A DNA stretch of 30,047 nt from Candidatus Aenigmatarchaeota archaeon (GTDB taxonomy: Archaea; Aenigmatarchaeota; Aenigmatarchaeia; Aenigmatarchaeales; JACQIB01). Where the stretch lies: the NCBI GenBank assembly GCA_046760225.1, contig JBHIDR010000006.1, forward strand, positions 1 through 30,047, given 5' to 3'. The position numbers and the translations under genes were made by a program. Positions 4,872 through 30,047 of this stretch are shown here, piece by piece (position 1 is the stretch's first letter; every line of letters starts with the position of its first letter). Below the pieces are notes generated by a model. It worked only from the letters and a program-made list of their open reading frames with translations. It made no database searches and was not told the origin of the DNA.

Positions 4872-6008
4872 ATGGTTGACAGAGAAAGGATAGTAGAACT
4901 GACAAGAAAGCTGGTTCAGGTAAACAGCAGCAACCCGCCTGGAAATGAAAAGGTTGTTGTTGATATTCTTGCAGAAGAGCTCAAGAAACTAGGGCTGGAA
5001 GTAAGGCTGCTTGAGGTAGCCCATGAAAGACCCAACCTCCTTGCAACATGGCGCGGTGGTGAAGGAAAGAAGCTGATAATCCATAGCCATACAGACACGA
5101 TTCCTGCTGGTGACGGATGGGAGCACAATCCTTTTGGGGGAGAAGTAGAGAACGGCAAGATATATGGAAGGGGGGCTGCTGACATGAAGGGCTCCTTGGC
5201 TGCAATGGTCTGCGCTATTGAGCAGCTGAAAAAAGAAGGATGGGAGCCGAACGGCGAGCTGATGATTCTTGCATGCTGCAATGAGGAGATGGGAGACAGG
5301 GAAGAAATAGGAATGAAGCATGTTGCTGACAAGATCACAGGTGACCTTATAGTGATGGCTGATACCAGCGACTTCAACATAATTGTTGCTGAAAAGGGCA
5401 TGCTCTGGATGGAGTTCATAGCAAAGGGAAAGCAGGCGCATGGCTCAATGCCATGGCTCGGGGTGAATGCAATAGAGATGCTGGGGAGGTTCTTGATGGA
5501 GCTGAAGAAGCTGGAATTTGATGTTGAGCATCCGCTTCTTGGCAAGTCAACACTTTCCATAAATATGCTGTCAGGCGGGGTCAAGACAAATGCTGTGCCA
5601 GGAAAAGCAAGGTCAACTGTTGACATAAGGCTTGTGCCTGGTGAGGACAAGGACAAGGTAAAGGAAAGGATAGCTGAGATAATAAGGAGGATGAAGGAGA
5701 AGGACAAGGAAGTTGATATAGAGATGAAGGAGATAGTATACTATGACCCTGTTGAGACATCACCTGACCAGGCATTTGTTGCGCAGCTCAAGGAAACAGT
5801 GGAGAGAGTGCTTGGCAAGGAAGTAAAGGTCATGGGCGAGCATGGTGCAACAGGCGCAGGCATATTCATCAGCCACGGTATTCCTGCTGTTGTGTGCGGG
5901 CCAGGAAAGCCAGAGGTTGCGCATGCAAGGGACGAGTACATAGAAATAGACGACCTTGTGAAGGCATGCGAGATATACGTAGACTTTGCAAAGAAGTTCC
6001 TTGGATGA
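4872..6008 (+). CDS. M20-family metallopeptidase/deacylase (ArgE/DapE-like)
   Basis: HSHTDT, YGRGAADMKG, NEE, AHGSMPWLGVNAI and AHARDEY motifs. Confidence 0.9.
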   Translation: MVDRERIVELTRKLVQVNSSNPPGNEKVVVDILAEELKKLGLEVRLLEVAHERPNLLATWRGGEGKKLIIHSHTDTIPAGDGWEHNPFGGEVENGKIYGRGAADMKGSLAAMVCAIEQLKKEGWEPNGELMILACCNEEMGDREEIGMKHVADKITGDLIVMADTSDFNIIVAEKGMLWMEFIAKGKQAHGSMPWLGVNAIEMLGRFLMELKKLEFDVEHPLLGKSTLSINMLSGGVKTNAVPGKARSTVDIRLVPGEDKDKVKERIAEIIRRMKEKDKEVDIEMKEIVYYDPVETSPDQAFVAQLKETVERVLGKEVKVMGEHGATGAGIFISHGIPAVVCGPGKPEVAHARDEYIEIDDLVKACEIYVDFAKKFLG

Positions 6009-6012
6009 TATA

Positions 6013-6429
6013 ATGGAAATTGATTATGAAAAACTTGTCAAAGAAGCTATCAAGGCACTGGACAGTTTCTATGGCGGGGACCCGAAATCCAAATACATAT
6101 ATGCTTCAGCTGTGCTGACAGACAAAGGTAATATTTACACTGCAAGCAACTATGTTTCTGATACAACTACATTAACGTTGCATGCAGAGCAGGTAGCGCT
6201 TGCACATGCTGCAGCACATAAGGATGCGAGAATAGTGGCAATAGTTTCTGTAGGAAAGGAGGACCCAGAAGGCGAGAAATTATGCCATCCGTGCGGACTG
6301 TGCAAGCAGTTGATATGGGAGAACTCCCTGAAGTCAGGGATTCAGATAAAGGTCATAATGGCCAACCTGAAGGGCAAGTACGTTGCAAAGGACATAAAGG
6401 AACTCGTGCCTTACCCCTGGCCAGAATAA
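6013..6429 (+). CDS. cdd: Cytidine deaminase
   Basis: HAEQVA and PCGLCKQ zinc motifs; ATG 6013 is preferred over the track start at 5986. Confidence 0.8.
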   Translation: MEIDYEKLVKEAIKALDSFYGGDPKSKYIYASAVLTDKGNIYTASNYVSDTTTLTLHAEQVALAHAAAHKDARIVAIVSVGKEDPEGEKLCHPCGLCKQLIWENSLKSGIQIKVIMANLKGKYVAKDIKELVPYPWPE

Positions 6430-6484
6430 GGTTTTATATTCCCACATAGCTTTATATACCACCCTTTAGTAATATATATTAGGG

Positions 6485-6634
6485 ATGAATATGGGTTGTT
6501 CATGTGGCGAGAGCCCTTACAATATGACAAAGAACGCGTCCGTGTATGGACCTGGTGTTAGAGAGAAAAGGCTCTTGGGATATGGAGAAGAGCCCCTGAG
6601 AACACCCAAATATTCAGGAGTTACTTACAGGTGA
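6485..6634 (+). CDS. 49-aa hypothetical micro-protein, probable first cistron of the tRNA-His/hisS unit
   Basis: MNMGCSCGESPYNMTKNASVYGPGVREKRLLGYGEEPLRTPKYSGVTYR*; TATA-like TTTATATA at 6451-6458, about 27 nt upstream. Confidence 0.5.
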   Translation: MNMGCSCGESPYNMTKNASVYGPGVREKRLLGYGEEPLRTPKYSGVTYR

Positions 6635-6646
6635 ATGAGATGAAAG

Positions 6647-6979
6647 GTGAACGAGTTCACAAAGAGAGTGCAGGATTCTGCTAGGTTCACCTCTAAATTA
6701 GACAAAAGAGGAAGAGCACTTGTTTCTGCTGATATAAGGAAATTATTGAGGCTTAGATTTGGCTCTGTGGTTCTTGTTGAGATTGGTAGTTCTAGCTTTA
6801 GTACTAAGATAGATGATAGAGGAAGGTTTTCTGTTCCTACTAGGATAAGGAATGGCCGGGATAGTGTAGTAGTCAACATACGAGCCTGTGGAGCTTGTGA
6901 CGCGGGTGCAAATCCCGCTCCCGGCCCCATTGAAACTTTTAGAAAAAGTTTCATCAAAAACAGGAGGTGTAAAAAATGA
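6647..6979 (+). CDS. Tandem AbrB/SpoVT (MraZ-like) DNA-binding protein whose 3' part contains tRNA-His
   Basis: Two repeats, FTSKLDKRGRALVSADIRKLL and FSTKIDDRGRFSVPTRIR, resembling the D-x-x-G-R-x-x-x-P-x-x-x-R AbrB/MraZ pattern. GTG start at 6647 or 6668. Confidence 0.65.
   Translation: MNEFTKRVQDSARFTSKLDKRGRALVSADIRKLLRLRFGSVVLVEIGSSSFSTKIDDRGRFSVPTRIRNGRDSVVVNIRACGACDAGANPAPGPIETFRKSFIKNRRCKK
6854..6929 (+). tRNA. tRNA-His(GTG), intronless, with encoded G-1 and CCA
   Basis: G-1, acceptor GCCGGGA/TCCCGGC, C73, CCA; anticodon arm CGAGC-CTGTGGA-GCTTG; T arm GCGGG-TGCAAAT-CCCGC. Confidence 0.95.
6931..6960. repeat. Perfect 10-bp hairpin plus TCAAAAA tail directly after tRNA-His
   Basis: TGAAACTTTT-AGA-AAAAGTTTCA-TCAAAAA; resembles tRNA-Arg intron 4. 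Confidence 0.6.
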
Positions 6980-7123
6980 GTGGTGAAGAAGTTCACATAT
7001 GAGGAGGACTGGGAACTGAAGGAAATGCAAAAGGACCTGAGAAACGGAGAAATAACAAAAGAGCAATATGAAGTGTTTCTCATTTTAACAGGGAGATATA
7101 AAATATATGAAGGCAAAATATAA
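6980..7123 (+). CDS. 47-aa micro-protein, SHOCT-like
   Basis: AGGAGGTG RBS at 6962-6969, GTG start; MVKKFTYEEDWELKEMQKDLRNGEITKEQYEVFLILTGRYKIYEGKI* (LxxGEITxEQY pattern). Confidence 0.55.
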   Translation: MVKKFTYEEDWELKEMQKDLRNGEITKEQYEVFLILTGRYKIYEGKI

Positions 7124-7132
7124 GGTGATAAC

Positions 7133-8416
7133 ATGAAGTTCCAGAAGCCGAAAGGCACAAGAGACCTGATGCCAGAGGACATGGCAAAGAGGAGGAAGTA
7201 CTTTGAGGCAGTCAGGAAGGTATTGATAAGGTACGGCTATGGAGAGATAATGACACCTGCGTTCGAGACCCTTGCGCTCTTGGAGGCAAAGGGGAGCATA
7301 GGACAGGAATGCGTAAAGGATGTTTTCAGGATATGGGACAAGGGAAAAGAGAAGCTCGGTTATGGGCTGATATTCGATCCCACGACACCAATAGCAAGGA
7401 TTGTTGCAAATGACACAAGCTTGCAGAAGCCAATGAGATGGTACTATATCAGGCCAATGTGGAGGTATGAGGAAACAAGGCCAGGCAGGTACAGGGAATT
7501 CTGGCAGGCAGGTGTTGAACTAATAGGAAGTGACAGTCCTCTGGCTGATGCAGAGATACTTGCAATAACCTATGACTGCATGAAGGCAATGGGGATAACT
7601 GACTTTACTCTTCGGGTGAATTCAAGAAAAATAATGGAATCACTTGCAAAGATAGCAGGCATACCTGAAGAAAAAAGAACAGATGCTTTCAGAATAATTG
7701 ACAAGCTTGACAAGATTGGTGAGAAGGAAGTCAGGGGCGAACTGGAAAGGTTTGAAATACCCAAGGAGGCAATAGACAGTTTTATACGTTATGTGAAAAT
7801 GGGAAAGGAAGACATCAAAAAGGAACTGAAGGACTACAAGGAAGCACTGGAGGACCTTGAAGAAATAGAGCAGGTCCTTGAATATGCAAAGAAGATGGGT
7901 GTTGACAATGCCCGGCTTGACCTGAGCATAATAAGAGGTATAGATTATTATACTGGTTTTATTTTCGAGACATTTGTCAAGGGTTATGAAAAGCTCGGGA
8001 GTGTTGCTTCTGGAGGAAGGTATGACTCACTAATAGAAATATATGGCGGAAAGCCAACTCCTGCAACAGGAGTTGGCATTGGTATTGACAGGATGATGGA
8101 GATATTCAAGGAGAAAGTTCCTTATTCACCATTAGTCTATGTTGCAAATGCAAAGGAAGAGACAAAGGACGATGCAATAAGGATTGCACAGATGCTGAGG
8201 AAGGAGATATCAGCTGAATTTGATGTTCTGGGAAAGAAATTGAAAAAACAGTTCGAGTATGTCAATACAAAGGAAATTCCATATTGCGTGATTGTGGGTC
8301 CTGATGAAATAAAAGAAAATTCTGTTGTTGTAAGGGACATGAAGAGCGGGAAGGAAGAAAAAATTGAAGTAAAAAAGCTAAAAGATTTCTTTTTACAACT
8401 AAAGAAGAGAAAGTAA
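7133..8416 (+). CDS. hisS: Histidyl-tRNA synthetase
   Basis: PKGTRD, WRYEETRPGRYREFWQAGVE, RGIDYYTG, SGGRYDSL and anticodon-binding domain. Confidence 0.97.
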   Translation: MKFQKPKGTRDLMPEDMAKRRKYFEAVRKVLIRYGYGEIMTPAFETLALLEAKGSIGQECVKDVFRIWDKGKEKLGYGLIFDPTTPIARIVANDTSLQKPMRWYYIRPMWRYEETRPGRYREFWQAGVELIGSDSPLADAEILAITYDCMKAMGITDFTLRVNSRKIMESLAKIAGIPEEKRTDAFRIIDKLDKIGEKEVRGELERFEIPKEAIDSFIRYVKMGKEDIKKELKDYKEALEDLEEIEQVLEYAKKMGVDNARLDLSIIRGIDYYTGFIFETFVKGYEKLGSVASGGRYDSLIEIYGGKPTPATGVGIGIDRMMEIFKEKVPYSPLVYVANAKEETKDDAIRIAQMLRKEISAEFDVLGKKLKKQFEYVNTKEIPYCVIVGPDEIKENSVVVRDMKSGKEEKIEVKKLKDFFLQLKKRK

Positions 8417-21467: not shown

Positions 21468-21595
21468 GCCGGGGTGGCAGATACCGCAAGGCTGTAACGG
21501 CTATGCACCTGATTCCTGAGCTGTTGCTCATGAAGGTGAACCTGCAGTCGTTAGGCAGCAAGCAGGAGAGTTGGGTTCGACTCCCAACCCCGGCT
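21468..21595 (+). tRNA. tRNA-Cys(GCA) with three introns: 21483-21497, 21512-21540, 21548-21560
   Basis: Acceptor GCCGGGG/CCCCGGC, U73; spliced anticodon arm CCTGC-CTGCAGA-GCAGG; T arm TTGGG-TTCGACT-CCCAA; TTTTTAAAT promoter upstream. Confidence 0.88.
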
Positions 21596-21614
21596 TCCAT
21601 TTCATGGTGATTAC

Positions 21615-22997
21615 ATGCTGAAGGTCCATAACACGCTTACGAAAAAAGATGAGGAATTCAGGCCAATGAAGGGCAAAGAAGTAAAAATGTTTGTCTGTGG
21701 TCCTACTGTCTATGACTACACTCACATAGGGCATGCAAAGAGCTATGTTGCATTCGACGTTATAGCAAAGTACCTGAGGTACAGGGGCTTCAAGGTATTC
21801 TATCTCCAGAACATCACTGATGTAGAGGACAGGCTAATAATCAGGTCAAAGGAGAGCGGAAGGAGTGTTGCTGACCTTGTAAAGGAGTTTACCAAGAAGT
21901 ACTATGAGGACATGGAGGCCCTTGGTGTTGACAGCATTGACAAGTATGCTCCTGCAACAGAATATATGAAACAGATAATAGAACAGGTAAAAGGACTGAT
22001 TGAAAAGGGGTTTGCATATGAGATATCTGATGGAGTTTATTATGATGTTTCCAAGTTTCCTGAATACGGAAAGCTTTCTCACCTTAAAAAGGAAGCCATT
22101 AAAAAGCACAGGATAGAGCCGAACCCAGAGAAAAGGAATCCTGAAGATTTTGTATTGTGGAAGAAACACAAGCCTGGGGAGCCTGCATGGGACTCTCCTT
22201 GGGGCAAGGGAAGGCCTGGCTGGCATATTGAGGACACTGCCATAACAATACACCACTTCGGAAGCCAGTATGACCTGCATGGCGGGGGAGAGGATCTGAT
22301 ATTTCCCCATCATGACTGCGAGATAGCGCAGGCAGAGGCCTTTACAGGAGTAAAGCCGTTTGTCAGGTACTGGCTGCACAATGCATTCATACTTGTCGAG
22401 GGCCAGAAGATGTCAAAGAGCCTTGGAAATTTCTACACTGTGAGGGATATATTTGCAAAGGGCTATGAGCCAATTGTTGTAAGATTCTCATTATTGAACA
22501 CGAATTATAACAAGCCTGCAAACTTTACTTTCTCTGCGCTTGAATCGGGGAAGGATGGCATTGATAGATTAAGGGAGTTCATGAGAAAGGTCAAGGAAGC
22601 AAAAGGAGAAGAAGCTGGGATTGAAAAGCTGATAGAAGAAACAAGAGAGAAGTTCGAGAATGCAATGGATGACAACTTCAACACACCGAATGCAATTGCT
22701 GCTATTTTTAATTTTGTAAGGGATGTGAACAAGCTCGTGGATGAAGGAAAAGTGAGCCAGGAGGAAGGGAAAAAGATAATAGGACTTATGGAGAAATTTG
22801 ATTCTGTTCTTGGCATACTGAAAGGATGGGAAAAGGAGGAGAAGATACCGGAAGATATAAGCAAACTTCTTGAAGAAAGGGAAGAAGCAAGAAAGAAAAA
22901 GGACTTCAAGCTTGCAGATGACATAAGAAATAAAATAAAGGACAAAGGATGGATTGTGGAAGATACGCCTTCTGGACCAAGAGTGAGGAAGGCATGA
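21615..22997 (+). CDS. cysS: Cysteinyl-tRNA synthetase
   Basis: CGPTVYDYTHIGH, DFVLWK, GRPGWHIE, DLIFPHH and KMSKS motifs. Confidence 0.97.
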   Translation: MLKVHNTLTKKDEEFRPMKGKEVKMFVCGPTVYDYTHIGHAKSYVAFDVIAKYLRYRGFKVFYLQNITDVEDRLIIRSKESGRSVADLVKEFTKKYYEDMEALGVDSIDKYAPATEYMKQIIEQVKGLIEKGFAYEISDGVYYDVSKFPEYGKLSHLKKEAIKKHRIEPNPEKRNPEDFVLWKKHKPGEPAWDSPWGKGRPGWHIEDTAITIHHFGSQYDLHGGGEDLIFPHHDCEIAQAEAFTGVKPFVRYWLHNAFILVEGQKMSKSLGNFYTVRDIFAKGYEPIVVRFSLLNTNYNKPANFTFSALESGKDGIDRLREFMRKVKEAKGEEAGIEKLIEETREKFENAMDDNFNTPNAIAAIFNFVRDVNKLVDEGKVSQEEGKKIIGLMEKFDSVLGILKGWEKEEKIPEDISKLLEEREEARKKKDFKLADDIRNKIKDKGWIVEDTPSGPRVRKA

Positions 22998-25716: not shown

Positions 25717-26319
25717 ATGAGCCTTATTGAGAGCATGCTGGAATGGAGCAGGCTGGCGCTGCTGCCGCTTGGAGAAGCAGGCCTGTTTGTGGTTGCGTTC
25801 ACTGAATCATCCTTCTCACCAATACCTGTGGAGCTGCTTCTGATACCAATGGCACTGGCAAAGCCAGAGCTTGCGCTTTGGTTCGCCTTTATCGCGACCT
25901 TTGCATCTGTTGCAGGGGCTGTTCTTGGGCATTGGATAGGCCTGAAAGGAGGCAGACCACTTCTAAGGAAACTGGTTTCTGACCACAAGGTAAACAGGGC
26001 AGAGCATTACTTCAATAAGTATGGCTCAATGGCTGTTTTCATAGGCGCTTTCACACCAATACCCTACAAGATATTCACAATAACAGCAGGCATGCTCAAA
26101 TTCAGGCTGTACAAGACAATAATAGCTTCAATAGCAGGCAGGACACCAAGGTTCTTTGCAGAGGCAATAGTTATAATGCTCTGGGGAGAGGCAATAGTGG
26201 CCTTCCTTTCAGAATATTTCGAGATAGTCACGCTCGGGCTTGGTGCAGCTGTCATAGGAGCCTATATTATATACAAGAAATTAAAGAAAAGCAGGCCTCT
26301 TGCTCATAAGAGGCGGTAG
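25717..26319 (+). CDS. DedA/YqaA (VTT) membrane protein
   Basis: AFTESSFSPIPVELLLIPM, FTPIPYKIFTITAG, GRTPRF. Confidence 0.9.
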   Translation: MSLIESMLEWSRLALLPLGEAGLFVVAFTESSFSPIPVELLLIPMALAKPELALWFAFIATFASVAGAVLGHWIGLKGGRPLLRKLVSDHKVNRAEHYFNKYGSMAVFIGAFTPIPYKIFTITAGMLKFRLYKTIIASIAGRTPRFFAEAIVIMLWGEAIVAFLSEYFEIVTLGLGAAVIGAYIIYKKLKKSRPLAHKRR

Positions 26320-28149
26320 CGGGAGCGGCTTGAACGGCTTTCCTTTGCTCCTTTCTTTAACATAGTTGACTACTTCTTTCGATAACATATTCTTTACTTC
26401 TCCGTTCTCCCTAAACCTGACAGCCAGTTTACCTGAGTCCTTTTCCTTCTTTCCCACAACAATTATCAAAGGAACCCATTCCTTTTCTGCGTCCCTCACT
26501 TTCTTCTGCACGCTCTCTGCTCTGTCATCTATGTCAATCCGTATGTCCTGTGCTGATATCTCCTTTGCGATGTCTTTACAATAGTCAATGAAGTCATCGT
26601 TCAAGGGGCAGAGGCGCACCTGTATCGGGCTCAGCCATAGCGGCAGCATAGGGTTCTTCATCATTGCAGCCTTCTCCAGTATAGCATACATGCACCTCTC
26701 TATTGCACCTGATGGGGAGCAATGCAGTATCAACGGGTATTTCCTCTTATTGTTCTCTGCAGTATACATTACCTTGTACCTCTCTGCATTCTCATGGTCT
26801 ATTTGCACTGTTGACAGGGCACTTGCCTTGTTCAGGCTGTCAACAAAATTGAACTCGAACTTTGGGTCAAAGTACGCGAAGCGCTTGCTCCATATCTCTA
26901 TAAGTAAAGGAGAATTGACCTTTTGCGCCAGTCTTTGGGCCATCTTCTGGTTGTCCTTCTGCTTCCAGAGGTCCTTTGAGAACCTTACAGCTGTCTCATA
27001 TTCTCCTGGCTTGAAACCCAGATCTTCCATAAGACCCATGCAAAATTCGAACTGGTTTTCGAACTCTTCATTTGCCTGCTTCAAATCCTTACATAGTGTA
27101 TGCATATCTGGCATTGTGAAGGCCCGAAGCCTTCTGAGTCCTGAAAGCTCACCGGGCTTTTCCAACCTAAAGGAATACCTTGTCAGTTCGTACATCTTCA
27201 GAGGAAGGTTCCTGTATGATATAGTCATTCCGTGCTTCATCAGGAACTGACCAAAGCATGCAGAGAAGCGCAAAAAGAACCTCTTCTTGAAGGACTCCAC
27301 AACATACTGGCGTGCTGGAAAGCGGTGCAGATAGCTCTTTAGTGCAGGATGCTCGTAGTCATACATTATCGGGGTCTCAACCTCCATTGCGCCGTATTTG
27401 ACTGTCTTCTGAGTGACCCATTCCTCAAGCAGCGACTTTATCAGCCTTCCCTTGGGAAAGAAGCGAAGGTTCCCTGGATCGCTGCCGCTCTCGTGGTCAA
27501 CAAGCTCGAGCGCCCGCATATATTTCACATGGGGAGGCATCTTTTCAGCTGCTCTCTTTTTTTCTGACTCATATGAATAGAACTTCTTGAGATTATCAAA
27601 GCCCTTGAAGTCAAACTCCTTTGCAGGGACAATCTTTCCGTCAGGCGCCATTATGAACCATTCAGACTTTATCTTTTCCTCGTCCTTCAGGGCACCGGAT
27701 ATCTCTTCTTCTGCCTTTGCAACACCTGGAATGCTTACGATTTCCCTGCTGAGCTCTGACAGAGGATGACCCTTGACAGATATGCTAAATGCCTTGTACC
27801 ATCCAAAGGGAGCATGTTCTACTTTGTAATTATCTTTCTTCAGAGCCTTCTCTATTCCAAAGAGAACCTTCATCGCTGCATCTGATGAAGAAGGCTCGTT
27901 TGTTAGATGGACATATGGATAGAGCACTATGTTCTTTGTCTTTACTTCTTCAGCTATCTTCTTTACTTCTTCAGCAGTGTTCTGTATTGTCAGAACAACA
28001 GCTGATTCGTCTCGCTTCTCAACTGCTGAGAAGACCACCAGGCACTCCTTGAAGGACAGCTTCTTCTTCTCTACCTTCTCTGCATCCTTTATGGCCTTCT
28101 TTTTTGGCTCTATCTCGAGCGAGTTGCTGTGCATGGTTATTATTTTCAT
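26281..28149 (-). CDS. thrS: Threonyl-tRNA synthetase, archaeal type with N-terminal editing domain
   Basis: LYPYVHL, APFGWYKAFSISVKGHPLSELSR, LRFSACFGQF, RLRAFTMPDMH, ILHCSPSGAIER. Confidence 0.97.
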   Translation of the reverse strand: MKIITMHSNSLEIEPKKKAIKDAEKVEKKKLSFKECLVVFSAVEKRDESAVVLTIQNTAEEVKKIAEEVKTKNIVLYPYVHLTNEPSSSDAAMKVLFGIEKALKKDNYKVEHAPFGWYKAFSISVKGHPLSELSREIVSIPGVAKAEEEISGALKDEEKIKSEWFIMAPDGKIVPAKEFDFKGFDNLKKFYSYESEKKRAAEKMPPHVKYMRALELVDHESGSDPGNLRFFPKGRLIKSLLEEWVTQKTVKYGAMEVETPIMYDYEHPALKSYLHRFPARQYVVESFKKRFFLRFSACFGQFLMKHGMTISYRNLPLKMYELTRYSFRLEKPGELSGLRRLRAFTMPDMHTLCKDLKQANEEFENQFEFCMGLMEDLGFKPGEYETAVRFSKDLWKQKDNQKMAQRLAQKVNSPLLIEIWSKRFAYFDPKFEFNFVDSLNKASALSTVQIDHENAERYKVMYTAENNKRKYPLILHCSPSGAIERCMYAILEKAAMMKNPMLPLWLSPIQVRLCPLNDDFIDYCKDIAKEISAQDIRIDIDDRAESVQKKVRDAEKEWVPLIIVVGKKEKDSGKLAVRFRENGEVKNMLSKEVVNYVKERSKGKPFKPLPLPPLMSKRPAFL

Positions 28150-28196
28150 ATAAACACCTTGTTCACAGTGGAATATAAGTTTTATTCATATATTTT

Positions 28197-28322
28197 TCAA
28201 ATCAGTACTCTATTCTCCAGATATTCCACTGCCTGTTCTGGGTCACCATCTCCGTATTTCTTCACAAAGTCTTCTGGTACATACCATATCTGCTCTGCCC
28301 CAATCTCTGCAAATCCTTTCAT
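28197..28322 (-). CDS. 41-aa hypothetical micro-protein
   Basis: AGGAGGTG RBS; ATGA overlap with the upstream ORF stop; MKGFAEIGAEQIWYVPEDFVKKYGDGDPEQAVEYLENRVLI*. Confidence 0.6.
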   Translation of the reverse strand: MKGFAEIGAEQIWYVPEDFVKKYGDGDPEQAVEYLENRVLI

Positions 28323-28663
28323 CTTTTACACCTCCTTGATTTTTTGGAGCCCTGAGAGGGACTTGAACCCCCAGCCTGCTGCTTACAAGGCAGCTGCTCT
28401 GCCATTGAGCTATCAGGGCACAATAATTCGATAGCGCTAGGTCTTCCTCTACCATTTGAAATCTTGATAGGGACACCACACGAATTGCCTTTCAACCGCG
28501 CATATGCATATCGAGAGAATGACAGCTTCCTCAAATTTGGGCATCTTTCTAAAACAAGTTTTAAAAGCCTCTTGCTTACAAACTTCCTGAAGTGCACGCA
28601 AGAAACATCAGGTGAAAGTTTTGATATATCAGCATAGCTAGAAACAATTAGTCCGCTTATCAC
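28319..28663 (-). CDS. DUF1699-like protein whose 3' part contains tRNA-Thr
   Basis: IVSSYADISKLSPDVSCVHFRKFVSKRLLKLVLERCPNLRKLSFS resembles DUF1699 (VVSS..I..L....VH.....CP....I), recalled rather than searched; GGTGA RBS before the GTG. Confidence 0.55.
   Translation of the reverse strand: MISGLIVSSYADISKLSPDVSCVHFRKFVSKRLLKLVLERCPNLRKLSFSRYAYARLKGNSCGVPIKISNGRGRPSAIELLCPDSSMAEQLPCKQQAGGSSPSQGSKKSRRCKR
28345..28419 (-). tRNA. tRNA-Thr(TGT), intronless, with encoded CCA
   Basis: GCCCTGATAGCTCAATGGCAGAGCAGCTGCCTTGTAAGCAGCAGGCTGGGGGTTCAAGTCCCTCTCAGGGCTCCA folds into a 75-nt cloverleaf. Confidence 0.96.
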
Positions 28664-28787
28664 TCTGTCCGTAATTCACCTTTCACCTTCAACACCTATC
28701 TAACTATTTATTTGCAACCTTTTTAAAAGGGGCAGAAATGTCACAAAAATTAACCTTAAAAAAGTCTGTTGAACAAACTATACTCAT

Positions 28788-28948
28788 AGCCCCGTGGTCT
28801 AGTGGCCAAGAATCCTTTGGAGGATTGGTAAGATGACAGGCTTTGGTGCGCTAAAGCTCTGAGCGAAAGCTGTGAGGATACCTGTTGACGGAGGAGGGCG
28901 TATAGTTAATCTATTGCCCGCCGATTTCGAATCCTCCCGGGGCTACCA
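28788..28948 (+). tRNA. tRNA-Gln(TTG) with three introns: 28811-28831, 28847-28879, 28895-28925
   Basis: A1-U72 acceptor AGCCCCG/CGGGGCT, A73, CCA; spliced anticodon arm ACAGG-CTTTGGA-CCTGT; T arm GGAGG-TTCGAAT-CCTCC. Confidence 0.88.
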
Positions 28949-28950
28949 TT

Positions 28951-29463
28951 ATGATTATGCCAGACTGGAACGTGATTGTGACAACGCAGAGAAGGGACAT
29001 AAGGGAGGCCTTCAAGCAGCTCAGGCCGCATGGAGAGTTCAAGCGCTCAGCATTCAGGGGGATACTAACAGGCAAGGTAGAGAACAAGGAGGAGTTCATG
29101 GACAGGATGAAGGAGGTCAAGTTCCCTGCTTTCTTCAGGATAATACCTATTGATGCTGTTTTTCTGTTCGAGCCGGACAAGCTTACTGATAGACTAAAGG
29201 AAATGATGCCAAAGTATGCAGAGAAGATACCAGAAGGGGAGAGCTGGGACATAGCTTTTGAGAGAAGAGGGCTGAAAGGAGCAATAAACAGCATGGAGAT
29301 AACAAATATCCTGAGGGAGCAGGTGAAAAACCTTACAAAGGGAAGGCTTGATTTTGAGAAGCCTGAGAACATAATAGTGATCGAGACACTGGGAAAGGAA
29401 TGCGGTGTTGGCTTCCTTTCAAAAGAGATGAAGGAGAAATATCATTTCGTGAGAGCAGACTGA
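28951..29463 (+). CDS. Stand-alone THUMP-domain protein (Tan1-like)
   Basis: RIIPID, SWDIAFERRG, LDFEKPENIIVIETLG..CGVG. Confidence 0.82.
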   Translation: MIMPDWNVIVTTQRRDIREAFKQLRPHGEFKRSAFRGILTGKVENKEEFMDRMKEVKFPAFFRIIPIDAVFLFEPDKLTDRLKEMMPKYAEKIPEGESWDIAFERRGLKGAINSMEITNILREQVKNLTKGRLDFEKPENIIVIETLGKECGVGFLSKEMKEKYHFVRAD

Positions 29464-29503
29464 TAAAATTCATTATGGTTTTGGTAGTGGAGACAAGAGC
29501 AGC

Positions 29504-30047
29504 ATGTCAATAGCAGGCAGCCTGATAGCGAGCATCCTGAAAAGCAGATTTATTTCACATTCGCCCATCATGCTTACGCATCTTGTTACTTCCTTATGCA
29601 ATGCCAGGTGCAAGACATGTGATTTATGGAAAAAATCATCTGGACATAAAAATGACATGTCCAAGGAAGATATCTTCAAAATGCTTGAAAAGGCAAGGAA
29701 AGCCGGGATGGGAGGCTATACAGCATGGGGAGGAGAACCTCTTTTGCGCAAGGACCTGCCTGAAATACTGCGGTTTGCAAAGAAAAACAAGCTGATCACA
29801 ACTGTAATCACGAACGGATTTTCATTAAAGGAGAGATGTGATGAGATTGCGCCTTTTACAGACTATCTGATTGTCTCCATTGACTCCAATGATGAGCTTC
29901 ATGACAAGATGCGCGGTGTCAAGGGAATCAGGAAAAGAGCAATTGACGGAATCATAGCGTGCAAGAAGACGAGAATGAAGACAGTAATCAACAGCGTGAT
30001 AAGCAACCTGAACATGGACAGGATAGATGGCCTGTTCGAGCTTTCCA
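29504..30047 (+). CDS. Radical SAM protein, 3' end truncated by window edge
   Basis: Not in the ORF track. Manual translation gives MSIAGSL...VTSLCNARCKTCDLW (CxxxCxxC), WGGEPL, ITNG, VSIDS...HDKMRG. Confidence 0.9.
   Translation, partial: MSIAGSLIASILKSRFISHSPIMLTHLVTSLCNARCKTCDLWKKSSGHKNDMSKEDIFKMLEKARKAGMGGYTAWGGEPLLRKDLPEILRFAKKNKLITTVITNGFSLKERCDEIAPFTDYLIVSIDSNDELHDKMRGVKGIRKRAIDGIIACKKTRMKTVINSVISNLNMDRIDGLFELS

Follow-up and report, generated by a model that had tools for sequence, protein, structure and literature searches.

We found a complete tRNA-Thr(UGU) gene nested in frame, and on the same strand, inside a 114-amino-acid open reading frame (ORF) that lies ahead of the ThrRS gene in a Candidatus Aenigmatarchaeota archaeon (GenBank assembly GCA_046760225.1), a tiny vent archaeon with a compact genome of 0.85 Mb. 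The sequence analyzed, referred to here as the window, comprises positions 1 to 30,047 of contig JBHIDR010000006.1. Conservation and gene order identify the ORF as the conserved first gene of a predicted ThrRS operon, one that encodes a small, threonine-free, DUF1699_N-like protein from a GTG start codon; in this lineage, the 3′ end of the small gene has received a second tRNA-Thr(UGU) gene that apparently has no promoter of its own. No stop codon remained at the junction, and the frame therefore continues across the tRNA until it meets the TGA of an ATGA. We consider it probable that the small ORF, the tRNA, and the synthetase gene form a cotranscribed operon in which excision of the tRNA and translation of the full ORF are mutually exclusive.

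The initial annotation of this locus described a frame that stays open through the entire tRNA-Thr and closes only at the ATGA of a following micro-ORF. This was confirmed by the ORF listing, which gave an identical translation, and by ARAGORN. The conserved part of the ORF ends in GRGRPSAIELL and is followed by CPDSSMAEQLPCKQQAGGSSPSQGSK. The stop codon lies in ATGA 28322-28319, where it overlaps the ATG (28322-28320) of a 41-amino-acid micro-ORF. This micro-ORF has no Pfam match and no homologue among the 41 other genomes of the order; thus, the ATGA overlap may be fortuitous. The tRNA has a regular cloverleaf (stems of 7, 4, 5, and 5 bp; anticodon tgt in the ARAGORN call) and scores 72.4 bits against Rfam RF00005, for which the gathering score is 29. 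Contigs from two further sequencing runs span the ORF/tRNA junction with 0 differences (X2, 28356-28800; X3, 28356-28766), and another contig (X4, 28121-28441) spans the tRNA, the micro-ORF, and the start of ThrRS, all runs being from one study. The junction is not an assembly artifact. A separate tRNA-like element at 28788-28948 on the forward strand was recognized by neither Rfam nor ARAGORN, and the sole match inside it was C/D-box-like and nonsignificant (E = 0.65).

Table 1. Features of the nested tRNA-Thr locus and of the parallel tRNA-His locus in the window
Feature	Position	Strand	Evidence or detail
Full ORF, 114 aa, including the tRNA-encoded tail	28319..28663	-	Stop codon TGA at 28321-28319
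81-codon conserved part, DUF1699_N-like, ending GRGRPSAIELL	28421..28663	-	Homologues, codon-position differences, AF2 model
tRNA-Thr(UGU), intronless, CCA encoded, no upstream TATA-like run	28345..28419	-	ARAGORN, Rfam
Putative micro-ORF, 41 aa; its ATG and the stop codon of the 114-aa ORF share bases	28197..28322	-	ORF listing
ThrRS: archaeal editing domain, class II core, anticodon-binding domain	26281..28149	-	Pfam PF08915 (153.6 bits), PF00587, PF03129
GGTGA, Shine-Dalgarno-like, 12 nt 5′ of the GTG start	28676..28680	-	Sequence; GGTGA directly precedes the frame at homologous loci, too
AGGAGGTG, Shine-Dalgarno, 8 nt 3′ of the tRNA and 6 nt 5′ of the micro-ORF ATG	28329..28336	-	Sequence
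TATA-like box TTTTAAAA, putative promoter of the small ORF and, we infer, of the tRNA	28721..28728	-	Sequence
Promoter-proximal conserved motif GTGACATTTC, 6 nt 5′ of the TATA-like box	28735..28744	-	Sequence
ORF, 110 aa, weakly AbrB/MraZ-like, reading through tRNA-His 6855-6929 and ending at an ATGA	6647..6979	+	Parallel case

The small ORF had been taken for a DUF1699-like protein gene; the gene is genuine, and DUF1699-like is a fair label for it. An alignment-based genome search recovered homologues in 46 of the 371 genomes of the class, and a profile of the family found 88 matches among 1.84 billion representatives. The family consists of threonine-poor, DUF1699_N-like proteins of ~90 amino acids. 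Differences within it are most frequent at the third codon position and least frequent at the second (15,000, 10,434, and 20,552 at positions 1, 2, and 3, respectively), indicating that the family evolves as coding sequence and that the ORF is a real gene. Residues 6 to 51 match positions 5 to 50 of the 130-position PF08004 (DUF1699) profile below threshold (16.8 bits, E = 0.0057; gathering score, 33.4), and the closest homologue, P0002 (65% identity), scores 19.5 bits against the same profile. P0002 carries PF28505, named DUF1699_N in the Atlas, as a precomputed domain, and the nearest Atlas clusters contain 82 to 100% PF28505 members (score, 0.87), which we treat as a lead only. The Pfam scan returned PF28505 neither for the ORF nor even for P0002, and this model was presumably missing from the Pfam copy used. 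The AF2 model of the small protein contains four β-α units (pLDDT, 75). A fold search of this model against the PDB gave no match at an E value of ≤0.001, and the best weak matches include LRR proteins; an LRR-like reading, to which two long multi-stretch profile matches also point, is a guess.

It is very improbable, in our judgment, that the small ORF is a dying gene that was disabled by insertion of the tRNA, such that only the tRNA and ThrRS matter. Decay would fit a GTG start with a 12-nt spacer and the failure to find the protein family in 5 of the 6 remaining genomes (83 to 92% complete) of this archaeon's taxonomic family, its own genus included. However, the 81-codon part is intact and keeps every invariant residue of the family (D12, H24, R26, K27, F28, G73, and R74). 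As a rule, members of the protein family start with GTG or TTG (18 GTG, 6 TTG, 0 ATG, and 6 undetermined at 30 loci). In addition, the frames of the window and of another genome with a nested tRNA, G006, have both remained intact (81 to 84 codons, 52% identity) across 21 synonymous and 34 nonsynonymous codon changes.

Threonine makes up 18 of 2,792 residues of the family (0.64%), compared to 5.08% in the long ORFs of the genome. The 114-amino-acid and 41-amino-acid ORFs contain no threonine, and the 81-codon part contains no threonine codon. This pattern is the opposite of that of a leader-peptide attenuator, and codon content also rules out the micro-ORFs as cognate-codon leader peptides.

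The family gene is linked to ThrRS: in 29 of the 30 loci examined, ThrRS follows it in the same orientation at a distance of -3 to 718 nt. The linkage holds for archaeal-type and TGS-type ThrRS alike, and in about 15 of the 30 loci the stop codon of the family gene overlaps the next start codon. In the five closest genomes, a ThrRS editing-domain query gave no usable match, and these genomes seem to carry another ThrRS type. Relatives of the small gene stop 4 to 33 residues past a GRP motif, and in the window the motif is followed by 6 residues and then the tRNA; thus, the protein domain is complete before the tRNA begins.

Homologues likewise lack a stop codon before a tRNA in a few lineages, whereas at 28 of 30 genome loci and 11 of 13 metagenome loci the gene closes with a stop codon of its own and contains no tRNA. 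We conclude that nesting is a derived and labile state of few lineages rather than a trait of the family. Nested tRNA-Thr genes or their remnants occur in the window, in G006, on two metagenome contigs, and probably in P0002, where the remnant was recognized from the protein sequence. The tRNA-Thr of G006 carries a 15-nt insertion in its T loop and scores just 33 bits in Rfam. On metagenome contig L122, the frame reads through a tRNA-Thr(GGU) and a tRNA-Tyr ahead of ThrRS, and L124 retains the 5′ remnant of a tRNA.

This distribution bears on an alternative in which the nesting arose neutrally, by accident, as the genome became compact. A copy of tRNA-Thr would have inserted at the 3′ end of the gene, with loss of the stop codon there; the 33 extra residues and an occasional nonstop transcript would be tolerated, with neither regulation nor coupling, and nothing would be selected, although the structure of the transcript may be the same as in the operon that we favor. 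Such an accident would account for the rarity and lability of nesting, for the decayed or remnant tRNAs of G006, L124, and probably P0002, and for the difference in nesting between the close pair L120 and L122. It accounts less readily for a tree on which nesting at this gene end must have arisen independently two or more times, and for the open frames (25 to 48 amino acids) found at 11 of the 13 places in relatives that match the tRNA-encoded tail alone.

Neutral placement would also fit the existence of another tRNA-Thr(UGU) in the genome. The nested gene is the second copy; the first, located on contig C16, contains an intron and is preceded by its own TATA-like run. The G+C content of the nested tRNAs (60 to 62%) falls within the genome's range of 54 to 66%, which rules out a foreign origin argued from odd G+C; the outlier is the other tRNA-Thr, at 70%.

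Two statements about promoters, that none is recognizable just 5′ of the tRNA and that TTTTAAAA precedes the ORF, proved correct. In a test that detects canonical TATA boxes only, an A/T run of at least 7 was present at -45 to -19 in 17 of the genome's 22 tRNAs (genome background, 0.15), whereas the longest run in this interval was 4 for the nested tRNA-Thr and 4 and 2 for the nested tRNA-His and tRNA-Trp described below. TTTAAA-type boxes serve other tRNAs and operons of this genome. At 23 of the 30 family loci, the motif [GAC][TC]GACATTT stands roughly 6 to 10 bases before a TATA-like box, and the full 11-mer of the GTGACATTTC motif has a single occurrence in the genome. TATA-like runs (AAAAATATAT and CTTATATT) are also found 20 to 48 nt 5′ of the ThrRS ATG, so ThrRS may have transcription of its own.

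A noncanonical internal promoter could instead serve the tRNA, in which case the ORF mRNA and the tRNA would be separate products that overlap simply through dense coding. Departures from TTTAAA do occur among archaeal promoters, a weak TTTCAAAT is located about 34 to 41 nt 5′ of the tRNA, and GTYCCTAYYARG is found 5′ of all three nested tRNAs and nowhere else in the genome (3 matches). The distance from GTYCCTAYYARG to the tRNA varies, however, from 43 nt (Thr) to ~22 nt (His and Trp), and these stretches can be read as protein (GVPIK/SVPTR). The clear TATA-like run of most tRNAs in the genome is absent from the nested ones, and transcripts from the upstream promoter would contain the tRNA, and thus an RNase P substrate, in any case. 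We therefore regard an internal promoter as quite unlikely.

The arrangement recurs at two other synthetase genes in this genome and in its order. The initial annotation had counted the tRNA-Thr as a second case of a stop codon beyond a tRNA, and the window indeed contains a tRNA-His (6855-6929) with the same layout; a third case, a tRNA-Trp, lies on another contig. On the 3′ side of the tRNA-His ORF are a 47-amino-acid ORF (6980-7123) and then HisRS (7133-8416), and three other genomes (G001, G012, and G036) carry the same ORF-tRNA-His fusion. Among 30 loci each, tRNA-His upstream of HisRS was read through in 5 of 5 cases, one of them by an unrelated racemase ORF, and tRNA-Trp upstream of TrpRS in 3 of 3. 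AGGAGGTG also lies 3′ of the tRNA-His and the tRNA-Trp. Counted by eye in the ORFs upstream of these tRNAs, histidine is absent from the ~271 residues of the four AbrB-like ORFs, and tryptophan is absent from two of the three wHTH-like ORFs and occurs twice near the uncertain start of the third. A tRNA-Asn before an AsnRS-like gene lies outside the frame of the preceding gene, which terminates 8 nt short of the tRNA. The idea of one constant read-through frame relative to the tRNA was ruled out by two tRNA-Trp cases in frame 2.

An open frame over 25 tRNA codons is by itself unremarkable. Two of the three frames of the nested tRNA-Thr are open anyway, which suits a neutral origin, as do two LAGLIDADG-like ORFs elsewhere in this small genome that likewise end inside tRNA genes and show that such overlaps arise without a link to a synthetase. 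What is not expected by chance is a conserved coding gene that lacks a stop codon before the tRNA, and the recurrence of this state. For Thr, His, and Trp, all tRNAs found upstream of their cognate synthetase are read through (Thr in the window, G006, and L122, besides the His and Trp cases above). For about six independent junctions, each with one or two of three frames open, the joint chance is roughly 0.01, where the count of independent junctions is a judgment. On balance, a purely neutral accident seems possible but doubtful.

Under the operon model that we favor, the tRNA would be transcribed from the promoter of the small gene (the GTGACATTTC motif and TTTTAAAA), in a single transcript that also carries the small ORF, the micro-ORF, and probably ThrRS. 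Two exclusive fates would then be open to every such transcript. In the first, the tRNA would fold and be excised by the joint action of RNase P and a 3′ nuclease, leaving a 5′ mRNA that lacks a stop codon, whose ribosomes would need Pelota-type rescue, and a 3′ mRNA that begins just 5′ of a strong Shine-Dalgarno sequence. RNase P RNA (113 bits versus 84) and Pelota (256 bits versus 178) are both encoded in the genome. In the second, ribosomes would translate through the unfolded tRNA to yield the 114-amino-acid protein and terminate at the ATGA, which would preserve stop/start coupling to the downstream gene as in roughly half of the tRNA-free relatives. The initial annotation, too, proposed a nonstop mRNA arising from tRNA processing; its observation is confirmed and its interpretation as a whole partly supported, with the nonstop mRNA itself a prediction.

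A more far-reaching and, on present evidence, unlikely extension is that the cognate tRNA in the leader of a synthetase operon acts as a sensor in these DPANN archaea, with Thr, His, and Trp as the minimum set of amino acids concerned. The small ORF, poor in or free of the cognate amino acid (Thr-free DUF1699_N, His-free AbrB-like, or wHTH-like), would read through the tRNA, and the balance between unfolding by ribosomes and excision by RNase P, perhaps with binding by the synthetase, would set the levels of tRNA, small regulator, and synthetase. Such a sensor would correspond, in archaea and with a real tRNA, to the thrS operator and the T-box logic of bacteria.

To our knowledge, the regulation of synthetases in archaea is little known, and DPANN archaea cannot yet be manipulated. 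The recurrent module (promoter motif, small ORF free of the cognate amino acid, in-frame cognate tRNA, strong Shine-Dalgarno sequence, and synthetase) is a concrete and testable candidate for such control. It would also give natural substrates with which to study how archaeal ribosomes handle nonstop mRNAs that RNase P generates. Annotation is affected as well: gene callers will predict proteins of 110 to 160 amino acids with tails of translated tRNA, and the tRNA itself will be either overlooked or reported as a spurious overlap. In the literature searched, which lay outside subscription journals, we found no relevant description of DUF1699 and no archaeal tRNA nested in an ORF.

In Escherichia coli, the thrS operator in the leader of the ThrRS message mimics the anticodon arm of tRNA-Thr and is bound by ThrRS, and arfA is a natural case in which a nonstop mRNA cut by an RNase still gives an active truncated protein. 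The present locus would resemble thrS in having a tRNA-Thr-shaped element in the predicted leader of a ThrRS message, and arfA in its proposed nonstop mRNA from endonuclease cleavage. Unlike that of thrS, the element here is a complete and probably functional tRNA, located 195 nt before the ThrRS start. As far as we know, archaea lack tmRNA, so the fate of a nonstop product would differ from that of arfA.

In animal mitochondria, excision of tRNAs releases the mRNAs between them, and coding regions abut or contain tRNAs without having a complete stop codon. The locus shares with this tRNA punctuation a coding region that contains a tRNA and lacks a complete stop before it, and its mRNAs would likewise be freed by tRNA excision. 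The base at -1 of the nested tRNA-Thr is T in all three cases (the window, G006 with its T-loop insertion, and L122), and addition of A residues could in principle complete a UAA there. At the His and Trp junctions, the junction bases are G, A, GA, or CT (G at -1 for His; A or another base for Trp); thus, stop completion is not general here, and A-tailing fits the Thr junctions only. We know of no stop codons made by polyadenylation in archaea.

A gene order close to this one appears in passages of a 2017 report on small-genome episymbionts that are related to DPANN archaea by gene transfer (PMC5370408). There, as here, the next feature upstream of a synthetase gene, apart from a small intervening ORF, is its cognate tRNA, and a regulator gene can head the operon. 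Those passages mention no tRNA inside an ORF, and ORF1 there is a synthetase-like protein rather than a micro-ORF of 40 to 60 amino acids.

The closest parallel is selC, the tRNA-Sec gene nested in the selB ORF of Alphaproteobacteria, for which excision of the tRNA has been proposed to leave a nonstop mRNA, so that protein and tRNA are alternatives (Mukai 2021, PMC8124441). The same paper cites a tRNA-Lys inside cox1 of Armadillidium vulgare mitochondria (Doublet 2015). In both selB/selC and the present case, for each of which the evidence is bioinformatic only, an ORF contains, on the same strand and at its 3′ end, an entire tRNA whose translation makes up the C-terminal extension, and the stop codon of the ORF overlaps the start of the next (a putative one here). 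Both have relatives with a remnant tRNA or with a stop codon before the tRNA (here L124, the insertion-bearing tRNA of G006, and the 28 of 30 loci with their own stop), and in both a single pathway involves protein and tRNA alike. In the literature searched, the nested layout has so far been described only for this one bacterial tRNA, a specialized one whose host gene encodes a large elongation factor. Here, the tRNAs are ordinary archaeal elongator tRNAs for several amino acids (Thr, His, and Trp), nesting arose at least twice independently, and the host genes are small, regulator-like ORFs that head the predicted operons of the cognate synthetases. These loci would widen nested tRNA genes from a single bacterial curiosity to the elongator tRNAs of archaea.

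The initial annotation placed a complete tRNA-Thr inside a small gene on the same strand, with the stop codon of that gene lying beyond the tRNA, and the ORF listing, ARAGORN, the Rfam tRNA model, and junction-spanning contigs all bear this out. The tRNA forms a regular cloverleaf and scores 72.4 bits (gathering score, 29). In the frame of the small ORF, 81 codons (…GRGRPSAIELL) precede entry into the tRNA, translation across which reads CPDSSMAEQLPCKQQAGGSSPSQGS…, and the terminator is a TGA overlapping the ATG of a 41-amino-acid (41-aa) ORF (ATGA, positions 28322 to 28319). AGGAGGTG sits between the tRNA and this ATG, and threonyl-tRNA synthetase (ThrRS) is the next gene. Contigs from three other sequencing runs, all of one study, reproduced the junctions with 0 differences (X2, 28356 to 28800; X3, 28356 to 28766; X4, 28121 to 28441); thus, the missing stop is not an assembly error. 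Four runs of this one study, each with the label hydrothermal vent metagenome, contain the stretch, which is contig C6 of a genome (G000) of 851 kb in 83 contigs that is 83% complete.

Positions of the nested tRNA-Thr locus and of the loci compared with it (window coordinates unless a contig is named)
Feature	Position	Strand	Content or basis
Small ORF	28319..28663	-	114 aa, GTG start; ORF listing
tRNA-Thr(tgt)	28345..28419	- (shared with small ORF)	ARAGORN
ThrRS, next gene	26281..28149		PF08915 (153.6 bits), PF00587, PF03129
TTTTAAAA	28721-28728		Reported in the initial annotation; position confirmed in sequence
Conserved motif of small-ORF/ThrRS operon	28735-28744	-	Motif comparison, 30 family loci
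L122 open frame	1489-1962 (metagenome contig)		157 codons, through Thr-GGU and Tyr, before ThrRS start
His module	6647-8416	+	Weakly AbrB/MraZ-like 110-aa ORF through tRNA-His (6855-6929) to ATGA; 47-aa ORF; HisRS
Trp module (L087)	27855-29531 (G000 contig C2)		wHTH-like ORF (weak HTH_20, E 0.004) through tRNA-Trp; AGGAGGTG; 60-aa ORF; class Ic synthetase
Asn region (L088)	5511-8011 (G000 contig C17)	One strand	53-aa AbrB/MazE-like ORF; 319-aa class II core; tRNA-Asn; 422-aa AsnRS/AspRS-type gene
tRNA, ARAGORN "Asp(atc)"	21468-21595	+	40-nt intron; 19 nt upstream of CysRS (PF01406, 378.7 bits); own TATA-like run
tRNA and CysRS pair	21468-22997	+	

The small ORF proved to be a real protein gene with homologues. 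A nine-member profile of the family (A1) detected it, almost always as a single copy, in 46 of 371 genomes and 25 of 170 genera of the class, and retrieved 88 proteins at an E value of ≤0.001 among 1.84 billion representatives. Differences at codon positions 1, 2, and 3 numbered 15000, 10434, and 20552 across 30 loci and 11, 5, and 32 in a close pair, a pattern that we read as the signature of purifying selection on the protein. The label "DUF1699-like" is a fair one. The match to PF08004 (DUF1699) covers the N-terminal 46 residues only and falls below the cutoff (16.8 versus 33.4 bits); the closest database protein (P0002; 99 aa, 65% identity) has PF28505 as a precomputed domain; the nearest Atlas clusters also carry PF28505, there named DUF1699_N, at a score of 0.87 that makes the assignment a lead only. 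An AlphaFold model of the small protein (pLDDT 75.4) has four beta-alpha units, and its comparison with the PDB gave no significant match, the weak matches including LRR proteins. Among 30 family genes, the start codon is GTG in 18, TTG in 6, and ATG in 0; none was found for 6.

By its gene neighborhood, the small gene stands first in a ThrRS operon. In 29 of 30 loci, it is followed on the same strand, at a distance of −3 to 718 nt, by ThrRS or a ThrRS editing-domain protein, regardless of whether ThrRS is of the archaeal editing-domain type, which G000 encodes, or the TGS type; no ThrRS was found downstream of the small gene in the 30th, shorter locus. The stop of the small gene and the start of what follows, either another gene or ThrRS, overlap in about 15 of 30 loci. 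Roughly 6 to 10 bases before the upstream TATA-like box, 23 of the 30 loci, across the class, have a [GAC][TC]GACATTT motif, i.e., GTGACATTT(C/G/A), which is a candidate operator for a putative regulator. Threonine accounts for 18 of 2792 residues (0.64%) in the family, versus 5.08% in 565 long ORFs of G000, an approximately 8-fold depletion that is given without a formal test, family members being kin. Eighteen of the 30 members have no threonine, as is true of the window ORF and the 41-aa ORF combined (0 in 155 residues). A leader-peptide attenuator would show the reverse pattern. At 28788 to 28948 on the plus strand, in divergent orientation to the small ORF, is a tRNA-like element whose acceptor 5′ end (AGCCCCG…) matches its 3′ end, with the T-arm/acceptor 3′ end and CCA about 160 nt from the 5′ end; a TTAAAAAA box precedes it by 25 nt. 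To be a tRNA, the element would need at least two introns; ARAGORN and Rfam did not call it, and one non-significant C/D-box-like match (E 0.65) lies inside it. Many relatives have intron-containing tRNAs at the equivalent divergent position.

The stop-less end flagged in the initial annotation is shared by few homologues. It recurs in a genome of the same taxonomic family (G006) and in a metagenome contig (L122), whereas 28 of 30 genome loci have their own stop, 4 to 33 residues past an invariant GR(P/Q), and no tRNA; the two exceptions are the window and G006, whose tails of 39 and 44 residues take in a tRNA-Thr. The G006 tRNA has a 15-nt T-loop insertion, was missed by ARAGORN, and scored 33 bits with Rfam; it may contain a non-canonical intron or be in decay. 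Of 13 metagenome relatives compared, 11 lack any tRNA there. The L122 frame crosses two tRNAs, one for Thr(GGU) that scores 67.9 bits and one for Tyr that contains an intron and scores 56.3 bits, with a ThrRS N terminus next (by eye); the near-identical contig L120 of that metagenome is tRNA-free, and contig L124 keeps in frame only the 5′ half of a tRNA-Thr, which had no Rfam match. The tail of P0002 (…EILWPSQGFKK…) has PSQG-KK in common with the window's translation past the T arm, which suggests, from the protein and with the DNA not seen, a 3′ tRNA remnant. In a tree of 44 family members, whose deeper forks are unresolved because it rests on 81 alignment columns only, three changes are required to account for the tRNA-bearing rows, and well-supported branches force at least two of these; L122 groups with tRNA-free L120 at 99/92 support. 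Nesting is thus a derived state that has originated at this gene end on more than one occasion and has been lost repeatedly.

The initial annotation had also seen no clear TATA box before the tRNA-Thr, and the other tRNAs of G000 agree with that view. For 22 tRNAs (21 from ARAGORN and 1 added by hand), the region from −45 to −19 was scored. A/T runs of 7 or longer precede 17 of them, and these runs typically resemble TTTAAA and reach to about −25; in random 27-nt segments of G000, such runs occur at a frequency of 0.15. The longest run is 4 before the nested tRNA-Thr, and the remaining tRNAs without a run of 7 are the nested tRNA-His (4) and tRNA-Trp (2), tRNA-Asn (3), and a tRNA directly behind another tRNA (2). 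Contig C16 carries a second tRNA-Thr(UGU), which contains a 21-nt intron and is preceded by a TATA-like run; therefore, the nested copy is not the sole source of this tRNA.

Three intronless tRNAs of G000 (Thr, His, and Trp) lie within read-through open frames of at least 70 codons, which substantiates the earlier mention of a second stop beyond a tRNA and adds a third. Downstream of each come AGGAGGTG, a small ORF, and the synthetase for the same amino acid; for tRNA-His this is HisRS (PF13393, 198.6 bits), and for tRNA-Trp it belongs to class Ic (PF00579, 141.7 bits). Within the order, 5 of 30 loci examined have tRNA-His ahead of HisRS, and an upstream frame crosses it in all five; four of these frames are AbrB/MraZ-like by weak Pfam matches and by eye (G000, G001, G012, and G036), and the fifth, in G025, is the C terminus of a gene for an Asp/Glu racemase (PF01177, 37.4 bits). 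The four AbrB-like ORFs contain 0 histidines in about 271 residues before the tRNA (by eye), a TTCCCACATAG(C/A)TTTATATA motif lies ahead of the His module in G000, G001, and G012, and the 47-aa ORF is apparently conserved in same-genus G001 (by eye). Three of 30 loci have tRNA-Trp ahead of TrpRS, and in each of the three it is read through by a wHTH-like ORF, these ORFs being homologous; relative to the tRNA, the frame used in G000 is not that of the other two. The conserved N-terminal part of this ORF in G000 and G023 has no in-frame ATG, GTG, or TTG, and an out-of-frame ATG occurs a few codons upstream, which could reflect a non-canonical start, a frameshift, or a sequencing error. The TrpRS-type gene of G000 (C2, 28404 to 29531) has relatives at 60 to 70% identity over the first 200 residues in only G002, G006, G023, and G032 within the order and is only 35% identical to that of G001; gene transfer may explain this patchy pattern. 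At places where relatives matched the tRNA tail only, open frames of 25 to 48 aa were present at 11 of 13.

Other cognate pairs differ in layout. tRNA-Asn, which has no TATA-like run, lies between an AsnRS-core paralogue lacking the anticodon-binding domain and an AsnRS-like gene, and the upstream stop falls 8 nt ahead of the tRNA, which is not read through; a 41-codon frame beginning 12 nt before this tRNA also crosses it. The "Asp(atc)" call is probably a mis-called tRNA-Cys and thus another cognate tRNA-synthetase pair. Two LAGLIDADG-like ORFs (by eye; C16, 1986 to 2924, and C72, 162 to 908, both minus strand) have their ends within tRNA genes, about 29 codons into tRNA-Gly(tcc) and about 3 into tRNA-Pro(ggg). 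Overlap of ORFs and tRNAs in this compact genome also occurs without a synthetase link.

The anatomy, the conserved small gene, its ThrRS link, and the lack of a recognisable tRNA promoter, together with the archaeal RNase P RNA (113.1 bits versus 84) and Pelota (256.2 bits versus 177.65) present in G000, are the observations from which we propose a model. A single transcript would start at the TTTTAAAA promoter, and folding and excision of the tRNA would leave the upstream mRNA without a stop. The conserved domain would be fully encoded before the cut, as in relatives with tails of 4 to 13 residues, and the downstream RNA would begin a few bases ahead of a strong ribosome-binding site. Ribosomes that cross the tRNA first would make the 114-aa form and terminate on ATGA, which would keep the coupling present in tRNA-free relatives. 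We consider such co-transcription with processing somewhat favored; selection on the arrangement, for coupling or sensing, as opposed to mere tolerance of it, is much less certain. By our own count, the chance of all read-through is near 0.01 jointly for about six independent junctions (a number that is our judgement) with 1 to 2 of 3 frames open at each, which hints at selection.

In the openly accessible literature searched, we found no description of an archaeal nested tRNA or of cognate tRNA-aaRS modules headed by a small ORF, and two related papers. One of these reports tRNA-Trp/ORF1/TrpRS-A operons in CPR bacteria (PMC5370408). In the other, nesting itself is already known from bacterial selB/selC, and that paper describes its case as the first in bacteria and cites a mitochondrial one; the same model as ours was proposed there (Mukai, PMC8124441).
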